Below, piece by piece: positions 24,001 through 30,000 of a stretch of DNA of 64,000 bases. The stretch's first letter is position 1, and each line of letters begins with the position of its first letter. Source of the DNA: Escherichia coli (lineage in GTDB: Bacteria; Pseudomonadota; Gammaproteobacteria; Enterobacterales; Enterobacteriaceae); the NCBI RefSeq assembly GCF_045037415.1, contig NZ_CP173438.1; one strand, given 5' to 3'. A program made the position numbers.

Positions 24001-27000
24001 ATCGCGCTGGGGATGCTGAACTTTTTCCTGCTCTGCGCCCTGTCGGTGTTTGTGTTTGGCGTACCGCATAAAGGCAGTTTCCTGACGCTCACCCTGGCGG
24101 CGCTGCTGTATATCATCATCGCCACCGGAATGGGGCTGCTGATCTCCACCTTTATGAAAAGCCAGATTGCCGCCATTTTCGGTACGGCAATTATCACGTT
24201 GATCCCGGCGACACAGTTTTCCGGGATGATCGATCCGGTAGCTTCGCTGGAAGGTCCAGGACGTTGGATCGGCGAGGTTTACCCGACCAGTCATTTTCTG
24301 ACTATCGCCCGCGGAACGTTCTCGAAAGCGCTGGATCTGACTGATTTGTGGCAACTTTTTATCCCGTTGCTGATAGCCATACCGCTGGTGATGGGCTTAA
24401 GCATCCTGCTGCTGAAAAAACAGGAGGGATGATGCGCCATTTACGTAATATTTTTAATCTGGGTATCAAAGAGTTGCGCAGTCTGCTCGGTGATAAAGCG
24501 ATGCTGACGCTGATTGTCTTCTCGTTTACGGTGTCGGTGTATTCGTCAGCGACCGTTACGCCAGGATCGTTGAACCTCGCGCCGATCGCCATTGCCGATA
24601 TGGATCAATCGCAGTTATCGAACCGGATCGTTAACAGCTTCTATCGCCCGTGGTTTTTGCCACCGGAGATGATCACCGCCGATGAGATGGATGCCGGGCT
24701 GGACGCCGGACGTTATACCTTCGCGATAAATATTCCGCCTAATTTTCAGCGTGATGTCCTCGCCGGACGCCAGCCGGATATTCAGGTGAACGTTGATGCC
24801 ACGCGCATGAGCCAGGCATTTACCGGCAATGGGTATATCCAGAATATTATCAACGGTGAAGTGAACAGCTTTGTCGCGCGCTACCGTGATAACAGCGAAC
24901 CGTTGGTATCGCTGGAAACACGGATGCGCTTTAACCCGAACCTTGATCCCGCGTGGTTTGGCGGGGTGATGGCGATCATCAACAACATTACCATGCTGGC
25001 GATTGTATTGACCGGATCGGCGCTGATCCGCGAGCGTGAACACGGCACGGTGGAACACTTACTGGTGATGCCGATAACGCCGTTTGAGATCATGATGGCA
25101 AAGGTCTGGTCGATGGGGCTGGTGGTGCTGGTGGTGTCGGGATTATCGCTGGTGCTGATGGTGAAAGGCGTGCTGGGCGTACCGATAGAAGGCTCGATCC
25201 CGCTGTTTATGCTGGGCGTGGCGCTCAGTCTGTTTGCCACCACGTCAATCGGCATTTTTATGGGGACGATAGCGCGTTCAATGCCGCAACTGGGGCTGCT
25301 GGTGATTCTGGTGCTGCTGCCGCTGCAAATGCTTTCCGGTGGTTCCACGCCGCGCGAAAGTATGCCGCAGATGGTGCAGGACATTATGCTGACCATGCCG
25401 ACGACACACTTTGTCAGCCTCGCGCAGGCCATCCTCTATCGTGGTGCCGGATTCGAAATCGTCTGGCCGCAGTTCCTGACGCTGATAGCGATTGGCGGCG
25501 CGTTTTTTACCATTGCGCTGCTGCGATTCAGGAAGACGATTGGGACAATGGCGTAAATACAGTGCCCGATACGCAAGCTTATCGGGCCTACGCGATGGTG
25601 CAATTTATTGAATTCTAGTGGTTTTGTAGGCCGGATAAGGCGTCACGCCGCATCCGGCGAGGATTTATTTTACCGACCGATGCCCCTCATTCATCATCAG
25701 GATTTTGCTATACACATCTTCCTCGACGGCGTTTTTTGCTGATGCCATCACTCGTGCCAGATTCGCCTCGTTGTGATTATTCACATACGCTTTGCCGACT
25801 GCGGTGATAAACGCTTTGCGCAGATCGCTGGCGATATTCACTTTAGCGACGCGATAATTAACGAAACTGCGTAATATCTCCGGGGCGATACCGGAGCCGC
25901 CGTGGATAACCAGCGGCACCGGGCTGACTTCGGCAATGCGCTTCAGCAGGGGGATATCGATCCGCGGTATATCGTCCAGGCCATGAACGTTACCAATAGA
26001 AACTGCCAGCATGTCGCAACCGGTGCGTTCGACAAAGGTCTTCACCTTTTCCGGTTCCGTTTTGCAATCGGCCTCGCTGACGTGATCATCTTCTTTGCCG
26101 AGAATCGCCCCCAGCTCCGCTTCAACCGGCACGCCATAAGATTTACAGAAATCGACAGCTTCCTGGGTGAAAGCGATATTCTCTTCAAAAGAGAATGCGG
26201 CACCGTCAATCATGACCGAGGTAAAGCCCGCGCGCACCGCCTGTTTAACATCCTCCTGGGTTTTCCCGTGATCCAGATGAAGACTGACCGGAACATCCAT
26301 TTTATCGGCGTGACGTTTCACGATTTCATATATGTAATCGTATCCCGACAGTTGTGCATTGGTGGGCGCAATCTGAATGAAGTTGGGTAATCCCGAACGC
26401 TCAATAGCGTTTAAAATTGAAATTGTCGTCTCCAGATTGGTGGTATTAAACGCGCCCGCTAATACCCGTTTTTCCTGAATGCGGTCGAGCAGTATCCGTC
26501 CATTCACTAATGGCATATTGAAAACCTCATTTTTTAATATCAGTTAATTATTCAGCTTCACCGAAGCGGTCGCGAAATAAGGCGGTGAGAGTCTGTATGG
26601 CCTCGTTTTCATCATCACCGTCGCAGCGTATTTCCACCGTTTTTCCGCCTTTTATTCCGGCGCGCATAATATTCATCATACTGGTGGCATTAATATCATT
26701 ACCCTCATAGTGCAGCGTCACTTTACAGCTACATTTTTTGGCGGCTTTCGCCAGACAGGCCGCCGGACGTGCATGCAGGCCAGTACTGTTTCTGACCTCC
26801 ACGGTTTTAGTCAACATAGTGCTCCTCCCGATGATGTAATGGCATCACGCCTTCTTGCTGTAATTTCAACTGATACCAGCTTTTCCATTTGTGCTGATAA
26901 CGCTGTAATTGATGATATCTTGCCCGATTCGGTAACAAACGTTGGGCTATGGTAACTTGCGGCGGCGGAATATCCGGTGCCGCGGTTAATAAGGCTCCGA

Positions 27001-30000
27001 CAGAAACCGCCTCGCTAAATGCAATTGCTTCAACCGGACGCTGTAAAATATCTGCCTTTAATTGCAGCCAAAGGGGGTTATGGGTCGCCGGACCGATCAC
27101 TTTTAACACGCTGGTGCCAGGCACATTAAAACAGGCAAAGCAGTTGGCAAATTCCATGGTTAATCCCAGTGAGACGCTGGAAATTAACATGTCGATATTT
27201 AACGTATCGCCAAGCCCATAAAATAATCCGCGGGTGTGGCGATTTTTATAGGGTGAACCCGAACCGCGAAGATGCGGAATAAAGACGGGAATGTCATCAA
27301 GCGACCAGTTCCCCGCCAGGTAATCCGCATACCCACGATTGAGCGACGCGGCGATCTCCTCATCAGTTAGCCGGAACGTGTTGCGCAGCCACTCCAGCGC
27401 GAAACCGCCCACGGGCAGAGAAGCAAACAGGGTGAACTGGTTGGCAAGCGAGTAACAGCCGTTTGCCAGCTTGTCACGTTTGGCCTGTTCATCCAGCGTC
27501 GGTTGTGTATCCAGTTGCAGAATGCCTTCCGTGGTGCCCGTCGAGTTAAGGATATCGCCCGGCATCATCTGCAACGCCCGCGCACCCACCATATGGTCAT
27601 GTCCGGCCAGCGTCACGCTGACCGGTTGCGAGAACCCAAGCGTTTTGCAGAGCGACTCGCTGACCCATCCGGCGTGTTCGCCTGGCTGCACCAATGGCGC
27701 AAATGCTGAACAGGGAACGTGTAACAACGCCGTCGCTTTCGCTGACCATTCGCCTTTGCGCACGTCCAGACACAGTGTACGGCTGGCTAAGGTGATATCC
27801 GTTCGCTGTTCGCCAGTCAGCCGCCAGAGCAGCACTTCCGGTGCATGTAGCCAGCGCAGGCCGCGACGATTGCGCAGCGGATAATGCTCCAGCAACCAAC
27901 GCATTTTGAAGGCAGAGTAATTGCTGTGCAGTGGTAATCCGCAAATGTCATAAAGTGCCGCACTGTCTGCCTCGCTAAGCGTTGCCAGATACTCTTCACC
28001 GCGACGGTCATACCATGCCAGCATTGGCGTCAGGATCTCGCCATGTTCGTCAAGAAACACCCCTGACTCGCCAAAACTGGCAATGCTGATCCGCCTGACA
28101 GGCAGCGGTGAAGCGGCGTTCAGTTGCGCTATCGCCTGGCGGACCTCCTGCCAGAGGGCGTCGATATCGAAATCGACATCGCCCTGTGGGGAGATCTGTT
28201 TTGCCGTCACGAATTTATGCGCGCCCAACGTCGTTGCGTCCAGGCAGGAAAAGCAGGTGACTTTGCAATTGGTGGTGCCAATATCGATAACGATAGCGGC
28301 GCTGTTATCAGGCATAAACCGTGCTCCGCGTCATTCGGAAAATGCCATACAGCACCAGGGCAATAACCGGCACCAGAGCAATGGCGATGAGATTGCCGTT
28401 GAAGATTTCCAGCAGCCAGAAGCGGAACGGGTTACCGCCATCAAGGAAACTGGAAACCTGGCCGCTGGAGCCTTCGGCAAATTTGAAGTTAACGTCTTTC
28501 GCCATTCCGGTAATAAACGGCGCGATTTTGGTAGCAATCCACAGGTCGGCAATAATCACCGGGATCGCCGCCAGAACGGTGCGGAAAATGTTGCCACGGC
28601 TGGCTAAAGCAATCATCGACGCCATTACCGCCAGGTTGGCAAGGTCGCCAAGCGGCAGGACTTCATTACCTGGGAGGACAAACGCGATAAAGACCGAGAT
28701 TGGCGTTAGCAGCAGGGCGGTGGAGATAATCGCCGGATTACCTACGGCAACGGCGATATCCAGGCCGATATAGAGATCGTCACGGTCAGGGTATTTGGCA
28801 TTGAGATACTTTTTAATGGCTTCAGACAGCGGTAATAAACCTTCCATCAGAATGCGAACCATGCGTGGCAGGATGAACATCACACCGCCAATGCTGATGC
28901 CAAGCAGCAATACTTTTTTGAAATCGTATCCGGCAATTACGCCGAGAAAAATGCCCAGAATAGTGCCAACCATCATCGGTTCGCCGAAAATGCCAAACTT
29001 TTTCTGTACGGTTTCCGGATCGATATGAATACGATTGAGGCCGGGGATATGGTCGATGATTTTGTCGACCAACAGACCGACCGGAAAGAACACCACCGAA
29101 GAGAGCGTCGGCAAAGAGATCCCTTCCAGGCCAAAGTATTTTTGTACCAGTGGCGCAGACCAGTCGGCGAGTTTAAGTACTACCACCGCAGCAATCGCCG
29201 CCGCCAGCAAACCAAAGAACAGGCTGCCGGAGCTGTAATAAACCAGCGTACCGGCAAGGGCAAAATGCCAGTAGTTCCACATATCTACGTCAACGGTGCG
29301 GGTTTTATTTAACGCCAGCATCGCCACGTTAATCAGAATAGTCAGGGGAATAACAAACGGGGCAATTGGCGAACCCCATGTAATAGCGGAAAGCGGCGGC
29401 CAGCCTAAATCCACCACCGGTAAATTAATTCCGGTGCGTTCAACCATCGCCTGGGCCGCTGGCCCGACATTGCTGGTAAGAATATCGAAAATGGCATAAA
29501 TACCGACAAAACCAATGCCGACCGTTAATGACGAACGTAAGGCTTTAGCGGGTTTTACTTTGAAAAAGAGAGCAAGAATAAATAACACCAACGGCAACAT
29601 TACCGTGGGACCAAATCCCAATATATATTGCACAATATTATAGAGGGTATGCGCGATATCGTTCATAATAAACCTCTTTTTCAGGCGAGAGCGCACCTCG
29701 CGTTAGCGCCTGATGTAGTGTGTTGAAATTAATTATTATTAATTACTTTTTTAGGATAGAAACAATTTGCGCCAATACTTTCTCTTCGCCAATACCAGTA
29801 ATAATTGGCAAGCCGTTAACCACCGGCACGTCGAGTTCATAAGGCACTTTAGTCGTTGAAACAACCAGTGCTACGCCGTCGGTATTTCCAGGTAAAGAGG
29901 CAACGTTGGTTTGAGAATAATTAACGTTAAGACCGTGCTCTTTACAATATTCCATGACTTTTTCTGTTACTGCCGTGGATGTGGCAATACCCGTGGCGCA

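Follow-up and report, generated by a model that had tools for sequence, protein, structure and literature searches.

Gene content of the interval between yhhJ and nikR

The sequence under study is a 64,000-nucleotide stretch of an Escherichia coli chromosome (contig NZ_CP173438.1 of RefSeq assembly GCF_045037415.1), referred to below as the window. The interval between yhhJ and nikR is filled by seven genes on the minus strand. These form an intact operon which codes for a regulator, the components EIIA, EIIB, and EIIC of a phosphotransferase system (PTS) of the galactitol (Gat) family, a carbohydrate kinase of the FGGY family, a paralogue of the phosphocarrier protein HPr, and an aldolase (Table 1). 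The RefSeq annotation in E. coli is identical, and a megablast search with positions 25500-31500 returned 100% identical matches in many complete genomes. A preliminary description of this DNA had pointed to an FGGY kinase and an HPr-like gene within a Gat-family PTS/aldolase operon. The underlying open reading frames (ORFs) and their coordinates were confirmed throughout, and the gene identities are established.

Several of the genes overlap. The previously noted 11-bp overlap between the kinase and HPr genes is real, as read directly in the DNA (ATGTTGACTAA, 11 nt). A Shine-Dalgarno sequence, GGGAGGAG, sits ahead of this overlap within the 3' end of the kinase gene. Read in the same way, the stop of EIIC overlaps the start of the kinase by 8 nt (ATGCCTGA). 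EIIA and EIIB overlap by 4 nt.

Table 1. Genes and sequence features of the operon and its flanks (positions in the window)
Feature	Position	Strand	Remarks
yhhJ	24348-25556	+	flank on the aldolase side
Weak hairpin, possible operon terminator	25564-25587	-	3' of the aldolase gene; 8 pairs, 5 of them G-C; poor T-run
Class II (zinc) ketose-phosphate aldolase	25665-26516	-	last operon gene; orthogroup NF005943/PRK07998
HPr paralogue, 89 aa	26548-26817	-	His15, Arg17, Ser46; TIGR01003
FGGY-family ATP-dependent carbohydrate kinase, 502 aa	26807-28315	-	Pfam FGGY_N and FGGY_C
PTS EIIC, galactitol (Gat) family	28308-29666	-	TIGR00827 (EIIC-GAT); RefSeq 'PTS galactitol transporter subunit IIC'
PTS EIIB (GatB-like)	29743-30024	-	Cys9 in motif ILFVCATG
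PTS EIIA (PTS_EIIA_2 type)	30021-30494	-	VAIPH active-site histidine motif
GntR/HutC-family regulator	30519-31265	-	first operon gene; RefSeq start 31265; mechanical ORF start GTG 31274
Operator-like tandem repeat and palindrome GTTGTCCATGATTGTCCATAGACAAC	31288..31313	-	upstream of the regulator gene
-10-like hexamer TACTAT	31323..31328	-	putative; no good -35
CRP-like site TGTGAGACGCTTCGAT (TGTGA-N6-TCGAT)	31350..31365	-	putative; some 40 nt ahead of the probable transcription start
nikR	31464-31865	-	flank on the regulator side

The FGGY kinase

The assignment of the kinase to the FGGY family was checked with hidden Markov models. Both Pfam domains were found, FGGY_N (PF00370, 2.3e-44, residues 7-245) and FGGY_C (PF02782, 8.3e-24, residues 257-446), which rules out a non-FGGY enzyme. 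The subfamily is a different matter, as the cut-off of no characterized FGGY subfamily was reached. The NCBIfam equivalog scores are 145 for XylB (cut-off 380), 129 for GlpK (590), 121 for FucK (471), 86 for GntK (649), 60 for RhaB (528), 45 for LsrK (528), and 27 for AraB (583). Judged by these scores, all of which are below cut-off, the kinase is a member of the FGGY family outside every characterized subfamily tested. A survey of the FGGY family makes no mention of a PTS- or aldolase-linked group (PMC3245297).

The best matches among solved structures are glycerol kinases (E about 1e-24). The catalytic Asp240 (in GHDHM) aligns with the catalytic-Asp motif of GlpK. In an alignment of 15 family members the ATP motifs DIGTTN, STGTTEG, and IGPA..N are invariant or nearly so, and Glu83, Trp101, Tyr133, and Asp240 are invariant. 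These four residues align with three glycerol contacts of GlpK (Glu84, Trp103, and Tyr135) and with its catalytic Asp245. The catalytic residues of the kinase are intact. Two further invariant residues, Gly82 and Gly264, align with Arg83 and Phe270 of GlpK, and the presence of Gly at both positions suggests a substrate bigger than glycerol.

The FGGY enzyme is the only kinase in the operon. According to the preliminary description, it occupies the place of a PfkB-type kinase or of a GatZ/KbaZ partner. This holds for the window and for about 90 related loci, in which tblastn searches with GatZ, FruK, and PsuK from E. coli K-12 gave no match. The absence of another kinase from the operon is established.

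The class II aldolase

The aldolase matches its orthogroup model NF005943 over the full length with 556 bits (cut-off 364) and exceeds the cut-off of the family model TIGR00167 by a small amount (220.6 vs. 215.6). It stays below the cut-offs for GatY (239 vs. 383), TIGR01858 (219 vs. 444), and KbaY (181 vs. 542), as well as for the equivalogs of fructose-bisphosphate (FBP) aldolase. Sequence identity to GatY is 36%. The nearest solved relative is AgaY; the match to YdjI (150 bits) is weaker than those to AgaY or to FBP aldolases.

Among 79 aldolase sequences, Asp82, His83, Glu132, Glu134, His178, and His205 are invariant. They comprise the zinc ligands and the catalytic residues. Arg233 is conserved in 77 of the 79 sequences; its counterparts are a Lys in AgaY and, in the Thermus FBP aldolase, the Arg of the N-x-D-x-x-x-R motif. 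In class IIb aldolases this motif residue contacts the distal phosphate. The conservation of Arg233 would suit an aldolase substrate that bears a distal anionic group.

Related loci in other bacteria

One genome per species was scanned with the kinase alignment, and the resulting 80 loci were labelled by tblastn with the cluster proteins. They span the Enterobacterales, Gilliamella, Firmicutes (Bacilli and Negativicutes), and Actinobacteria. Kinase homologues show 60-98% identity in Enterobacterales and 35-40% in Firmicutes. The aldolase gene adjoins the kinase gene in 78 of the 80 loci, both exceptions being contig fragments. What the preliminary description had termed unusual enzyme logic is thus no peculiarity of one genome: the gene-neighbourhood comparison establishes the kinase-aldolase pairing as old and conserved. 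Since the same genes recur in dozens of genera, the gene set of the operon is far beyond chance.

Three types of loci can be distinguished. The 42 type-A loci, to which the E. coli operon belongs, have genes for the regulator, EIIA, EIIB, EIIC, kinase, and aldolase, whose order differs between a few variants, and carry no dehydrogenase. They occur in Enterobacterales, the Enterococcus avium group, Lacticaseibacillus, Pediococcus, Sporolactobacillus, Selenomonas, Centipeda, Pectinatus, Propionispora, Tetragenococcus, and Coriobacteriia. The 21 type-B loci (Pantoea, Erwinia, Raoultella, Serratia, Buttiauxella, Gilliamella, Bacillaceae, Staphylococcus) have the type-A genes and in addition a GatD-like Zn-dehydrogenase, or two of them, and in many cases a gene of a phosphatase family. 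PTS and kinase strictly co-occur in 63 loci. The 16 actinobacterial loci of type C lack PTS genes; besides the aldolase and the kinase they have one or two additional FGGY kinases. The script also placed a 1.3-kb contig fragment from E. albertii in type C. In the locus from Microbacterium testaceum (L084, 8147-17938) a ribose-type ABC transporter is found beside the type-C genes. The conserved core therefore consists of the FGGY kinase and the aldolase, fed by whichever transporter is available.

In L084 and the 15 other actinobacterial loci, two or three FGGY kinase genes stand in tandem after the aldolase gene, the third being divergent (447 aa). A divergent GntR gene is also present, and the cluster in L084 is immediately preceded by a genuine xylA-xylB pair. 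Among the phosphatase genes of type-B loci, those of Pantoea, Erwinia, and Enterobacter are of the SurE family, and those of Gilliamella and of a metagenomic locus are of the His_Phos_1 family (phosphatase-bearing loci: L007, L044, L051, L052, and similar; L010, L049, L054).

Evolutionary rates within the operon are very unequal in all loci. The E. coli aldolase is 68-71% identical to those of Enterococcus or Listeria, and the aldolases of type-A and type-B Enterobacterales share 80-90% identity. In the same comparisons kinase identity is about 36%, and EIIA identity in the type-B comparison is 27-36%. A similar pattern is seen for the Salmonella-like type-A loci (L021-L031), with about 62-65% identity for the kinase, 59-66% for EIIA, and 43-48% for HPr, and roughly 83-92% for aldolase, EIIC, EIIB, and regulator. 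Co-variation of kinase and transporter, considered as a sign that the kinase acts on the PTS product, was rejected as an argument because kinase, EIIA, and HPr evolve fast everywhere.

Two further arrangements are found in Enterococcus. In Enterococcus sp. AZ163 (L009, 2463-8834), a 62%-identical aldolase is accompanied by a glucitol-family PTS (EIIA-gut, EII-GUT, EIIBC-GUT, GutM), an archaeal-type triose-phosphate isomerase, and a XylB-like FGGY kinase (348 bits, just below cut-off). The same aldolase family is here joined to another PTS family and another, unrelated FGGY subfamily. In Enterococcus raffinosus, malodoratus, and avium (L037-L039, about 10900-19400), a second cluster lies directly downstream of the type-A operon and codes for a paralogous aldolase (about 52% identity) and a XylB-like FGGY kinase, together with a Zn-dehydrogenase and a regulator of the Mga/PRD type.

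The phosphotransferase system

The homologues of the three PTS proteins carry the Pfam domains PF03611, PF02302, and PF00359, the latter in EIIA. EIIC reaches 474 bits with TIGR00827, for which the galactitol-specific cut-off is 542. EIIB scores 60 with the GatB model (cut-off 95) and is 37% identical to GatB; EIIA scores 55.5 bits with the GatA model (cut-off 139) and is 27% identical to GatA. Going by these scores, the three proteins belong to the wider Gat family and not demonstrably to its galactitol-specific group. The phosphorelay is complete and apparently functional, as His15 of HPr, the VAIPH motif of EIIA, and Cys9 of EIIB are present in the translations.

RefSeq names EIIC a 'galactitol transporter', and AgaY is the nearest solved relative of the aldolase; both facts would fit a second copy or variant of a characterized galactitol or D-tagatose pathway. 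Yet the EIIC, GatB, GatA, GatY, and KbaY models all remain below cut-off, GatD is missing from type A, and GatZ is missing from every locus searched. Salmonella, moreover, has a separately listed tagatose locus, STM3253-5 (PMC11000858), and its homologue of the operon is of unknown specificity (PMC3604774, PMC11000858). We consider it very improbable that the operon is such a copy.

The HPr paralogue

The HPr paralogue scores 100.9 bits with TIGR01003 (cut-off 47.9) and only 47.8 bits with the PtsH equivalog PRK10850 (cut-off 153); the NPr and FruB equivalogs are also missed. It is 31% identical to PtsH from K-12 and 29% identical to the HPr domain of FruB. The top match among solved structures is the HPr-related protein 3le1 (72.9 bits), followed by other HPr entries with about 50-56 bits, compared to 41.7 for E. 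coli HPr. A homologue search with a word prefilter returned close relatives only.

All 38 cluster HPrs share the sequence NSTGLHARPA, which includes His15 and Arg17. Ser46 is kept in Escherichia, Citrobacter, and Enterobacter cancerogenus, and is replaced by Gly in most other enterobacterial cluster HPrs. In Firmicute HPr this Ser is the site of regulatory phosphorylation. Because His15 and Arg17 are invariant while Ser46 varies, the pattern is that of a plain phosphocarrier. The HPr gene is largely confined to the Gammaproteobacteria, where it is present in 19/19 type-A and 13/15 type-B loci, as opposed to 1/23 type-A and 3/6 type-B loci elsewhere. Its position is variable: the gene order is kinase-HPr-aldolase in Escherichia and Citrobacter and kinase-aldolase-HPr in the Salmonella and Klebsiella type, and in Enterobacter cancerogenus the HPr gene is found at the operon end.

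The preliminary description had considered that HPr might regulate the kinase in the way in which phosphorylated HPr activates the glycerol kinase of Firmicutes. The two genes do overlap in E. coli, Enterobacter cancerogenus, and the Pantoea alder81 type, and the protein matches HPr structures from other organisms better than that of E. coli. In the alignment to GlpK from Enterococcus casseliflavus (3h3n), however, the phosphorylatable loop His (His232) has no counterpart in the E. coli kinase, which has Lys; none of the 15 family members has His in this column, which is variable. The kinase and HPr genes are separated by the aldolase gene in most Enterobacterales, and the linkage which is kept in most PTS-type loci is that between EIIC and kinase, not between kinase and HPr. 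The HPr gene is also absent from the orthologous operons of Firmicutes, Negativicutes, and Actinobacteria, with the exception of the one type-A locus in 23 outside the Gammaproteobacteria, and the residue pattern speaks for phosphocarrier function. The claim is not supported by these comparisons, and we give hardly any credence to control of the kinase by HPr.

We infer that HPr would serve as a dedicated phosphocarrier for the PTS of the operon, a role comparable to that of the FPr domain of FruB. One possible reason for the Gammaproteobacteria having their own HPr copy may be that the operon EIIA is poorly served by enterobacterial PtsH. This is proposed because HPr scores better with two non-PtsH NCBIfam models and with HPrs in the PDB which are not from E. 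coli than with the E. coli protein. That the gene might have come from a Firmicute donor is an idea drawn solely from this ranking of NCBIfam and PDB scores.

In 55 E. coli contigs (P0283 and related), the HPr call is only 57 aa long, starts with MTLHYEG, and lacks His15. Some lineages may have a disrupted N-terminal part, or a different start may have been called.

A proposed pathway with two phosphorylations

We propose that this is an accessory catabolic operon in which a sugar is phosphorylated by the PTS, phosphorylated a second time by the FGGY kinase, and then subjected to aldol cleavage. We put the chances of this proposal at about even. The substrate would be a carbohydrate, most simply a ketose. 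First, the Gat-family EIIC/EIIB/EIIA would import and phosphorylate the sugar, with the phosphoryl group passing from Enzyme I to His15 of the operon HPr, its predicted dedicated carrier, and on to EIIA. Second, the FGGY kinase would phosphorylate the sugar phosphate once more at the expense of ATP. PfkB enzymes (FruK, TagK, LacC) or PfkA carry out this step in the known routes for fructose, tagatose, and galactitol. Third, the zinc aldolase, acting without a GatZ-type partner, would split the ketose bisphosphate into dihydroxyacetone phosphate (DHAP) and a second phosphorylated fragment, which would be glyceraldehyde-3-phosphate if the sugar is a D-hexulose.

Two phosphorylations per molecule seem to be required because the actinobacterial loci, which lack a PTS, carry extra FGGY kinases. 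That the kinase handles the PTS product is suggested by the overlap of the EIIC and kinase genes in most PTS-type loci. The conserved Arg233 of the aldolase gives further support. As the type-A operon has neither isomerase nor dehydrogenase, a ketose is expected as its substrate, and the type-A enzymes would suffice for a D-hexulose. The GatD-like Zn-dehydrogenases of type B would fit a route from a polyol phosphate to a ketose phosphate which enters the same kinase and aldolase.

Several points weigh against this proposal. We know of no FGGY kinase which acts on a phosphorylated sugar, and comparison of the kinase pocket with that of GlpK shows a larger site only, without an identifiable phosphate-binding residue. 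The putative distal-phosphate role of Arg233 is taken from structures of the Giardia and Thermus aldolases. The extra kinases of the actinobacterial loci are equally predicted if the kinase acts after the aldolase, and the step order is not settled by them. Finally, D-tagatose is unlikely as the substrate because Salmonella has a separately listed tagatose locus and Klebsiella oxytoca, which has the type-A locus L021, possesses a tagatose system apart from it.

If the kinase acts after the aldolase, the logic would resemble that of aldolase B and triokinase. A ketose-1-phosphate would be cleaved directly to DHAP and a free aldose (glyceraldehyde, or erythrose for a heptulose), and the kinase would phosphorylate this neutral fragment. 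FGGY enzymes normally act on small neutral sugars and polyols, and the invariant Glu83, Trp101, and Tyr133 at the glycerol-contact positions of GlpK, along with the catalytic Asp240, agree with such a substrate; yet the Gly residues at the positions of GlpK Arg83 and Phe270 argue for one larger than a triose. The AZ163 cluster, which joins a XylB-like FGGY kinase to the 62%-identical aldolase, a triose-phosphate isomerase, and a glucitol-family PTS, is easier to understand as ordinary chemistry, and the actinobacterial loci with two or three kinases fit either order. On the other hand, Arg233 of the aldolase suggests a distal anionic group, the kinase start overlaps the EIIC stop in most PTS-type loci, and no bacterial PTS route is known to us in which direct cleavage of a ketose-1-phosphate is followed by rescue of the aldehyde through a kinase. 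We regard this order, which predicts the same gene content, as unlikely, but as the main alternative.

PTS and kinase could also provide alternative routes of entry. The kinase would then phosphorylate a free intracellular sugar, which had entered unphosphorylated, had been dephosphorylated, or had been made from a related compound, and the aldolase would cleave the monophosphate. This would be ordinary FGGY chemistry, and some type-B clusters carry phosphatase-family genes (SurE, His_Phos_1); the minimal type-A operon, however, has neither hydrolase nor phosphatase. Since PTS and kinase strictly co-occur in the 63 loci, and since a missing PTS is made up for by extra kinases rather than by nothing, two sequential phosphorylations are suggested instead. 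Parallel entry is therefore considered improbable.

Comparison with known systems

The E. coli gatYZABCD operon resembles the operon described here in combining Gat-family EIIA, EIIB, and EIIC with a class II (PF01116) aldolase that yields DHAP and a triose phosphate. Corresponding proteins show only 36% (aldolase and GatY), 37% (EIIB and GatB), and 27% (EIIA and GatA) identity. In contrast to gat, the operon has no GatZ, has its own HPr, and is equipped with a GntR/HutC regulator rather than GatR. The second phosphorylation would be carried out by the FGGY kinase of the cluster, whereas in the gat system it is left to a housekeeping phosphofructokinase. The GatD-like Zn-dehydrogenase of gat is shared with the type-B relatives but absent from the E. 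coli cluster.

The proposed succession of PTS, kinase, and class II aldolase is also that of fruBKA and of the D-tagatose PTS from Klebsiella oxytoca and Bacillus licheniformis. Both include a sugar-specific HPr-type carrier (the FPr domain of FruB, and TagH). A D-tagatose PTS pathway with a tagatose-1-phosphate kinase was reportedly described by Van der Heiden and colleagues in 2013. The kinases of these systems belong to the PfkB (ribokinase) family, unlike the FGGY kinase of the operon, and the operon HPr is a free-standing protein, whereas the FruB counterpart is a domain.

FucK/FucA and RhaB/RhaD likewise pair an FGGY ketose kinase with an adjacent metal-dependent aldolase which releases DHAP. 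In the L-fucose and L-rhamnose pathways uptake is not by a PTS and there is a single phosphorylation only. The G-H-D motif around the catalytic Asp is shared with the FucK and RhaB branch. FucA- and RhaD-type aldolases have a different fold, PF00596 (PMC5583593). With the operon kinase, the FucK and RhaB models are far below cut-off (see above).

An FGGY kinase and HPr are also paired in the activation of GlpK in Firmicutes, and GlpKs are the best solved matches of the kinase. In contrast to Firmicute GlpK, the operon kinase is devoid of the activation-loop His and fails the GlpK model by a wide margin. YdjI and IolJ have the same PF01116 fold as the operon aldolase and act on substrates other than bisphosphates. 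In these enzymes the fold cleaves ketose-1-phosphates which bear a distal carboxylate instead of a phosphate. Their partner kinases are of PfkB type and their uptake systems not of PTS type, as opposed to FGGY kinase and PTS in the operon.

Regulator and promoter region

Homologues of the regulator carry the GntR helix-turn-helix domain (PF00392) and the UTRA effector domain (PF07702). Several models of the HutC subfamily match over the full length but below cut-off. In 19 Enterobacterales loci the operator-like motif GTTGTCCATGATTGTCCATAGACAAC precedes the regulator gene almost without variation. Related repeats (TTGTACAT/ATAGACAA) occur upstream of orthologous operons in Selenomonas, Centipeda, Enterococcus, Lacticaseibacillus, and Gilliamella. 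GTTGTCCATGATTGTCCATAGACAAC is thus the probable operator of the operon's own GntR/HutC regulator.

A generic promoter scan found no sigma-70 match on the operon strand, so that our promoter proposal rests on conservation across species. TGTGA is present at the same offset in all Enterobacterales type-A loci, and several type-B loci have better sites of the form TGTGA-N6-TCATA. A TAyyATA block is conserved at the -10-like position in Enterobacterales. We infer that the CRP-like site and the TACTAT box are spaced as in a class II CRP-dependent promoter, for which a poor -35 is usual. The operon would be switched on when repression by the GntR/HutC regulator is lost, and probably also by CRP with cyclic AMP.

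Occurrence in E. coli and Salmonella

The interior of the cluster was found in 1637 of 5426 complete E. coli genomes, including O157:H7. All copies are chromosomal and they are essentially single (median one place per genome, maximum two). With two exceptions, the copies are essentially complete (1635/1637), at 96-100% identity. In strain 21335 (NZ_CM190149.1, H1/H11), the match to the cluster, although 100% identical, is split in two and has an annotated IS1 transposase beneath it, and we therefore conclude that an IS1 element has inserted into the operon.

The operon corresponds to the island Z4874-Z4880 of E. coli O157 (EDL933 genes including Z4875-Z4879), and its Salmonella homologue is STM3779-STM3785. 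Z4875-77 and Z4879 are up-regulated in bovine intestinal and rumen contents (PMC6199705). In a paper from 2013, STM3779-STM3785 figures as a complete PTS, of unknown specificity, which was gained by Salmonella subspecies I and was reported to be under H-NS repression (PMC3604774). In 2024 the Salmonella island was still listed among "unknown sugars", and STM3780-85 was listed as responding in a Salmonella-permissive caecal community (PMC11000858). With intact copies and induction in gut contents, the operon is in use.

Full-text literature available without subscription was searched by gene content and by locus tags (Z, STM, ECs). Within this scope no substrate is named, and the matches are transcriptome or comparative-genomics mentions only. 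We agree with the preliminary description that the substrate cannot be read from the sequence; nor is there a characterized pathway with this gene set in the searchable literature. The frz operon would be set apart by a ROK kinase, a fructose-family PTS, and a different site. The vpe operon of uropathogenic E. coli was rejected as a candidate, being a different locus on the deoK island (PMC5382810).

Wider implications

Earlier work had listed the locus as an island without an assigned function. The new element is the conserved module of FGGY kinase and PF01116 aldolase, which takes the place of the PfkB or GatZ solutions. It is conceivable, although we hold it with somewhat less confidence than the pathway itself, that phosphorylation of a PTS-made sugar phosphate by the FGGY kinase, combined with a GatZ-independent PF01116 aldolase, constitutes a widespread and ancient pathway for ketoses or polyols. 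To our knowledge, such a reaction is undescribed for the FGGY family. If this were true, the substrate would be an unrecognized dietary or plant ketose or polyol, for example a rare hexulose or heptulose, used in the gut by E. coli O157, Salmonella subspecies I, and the Enterococcus avium group.

The operon is carried by about 30% of sequenced E. coli and also by Salmonella, Klebsiella oxytoca, and many bacteria associated with gut or plants. Naming the substrate would define a further nutrient niche of enteric pathogens and would probably add phospho-sugars as a new class of FGGY substrates. The operon is a lead to an orphan pathway and does not involve a new principle. Comparison across loci predicts a kinase-aldolase core, an interchangeable transporter, an HPr almost restricted to Gammaproteobacteria, and a conserved operator.

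The nikR/yhhJ site

The nikR/yhhJ gap (25557-31463 of the window) is a variable site in E. coli. In K-12 (L095, NC_000913.3, 3618990-3625678), rhsB-yhhH-yrhC-yhhI is found at the same site. In the O157:H7 strain FRIK804 the aldolase gene is flanked by a HicB antitoxin gene. The 108-nt gap between yhhJ and the aldolase gene holds two G+C-rich hairpins, one on the minus strand (25564-25587) and one on the plus strand (25646-25659). The latter, CGCCGCATCCGGCG, has the appearance of a repetitive extragenic palindromic (REP) element.

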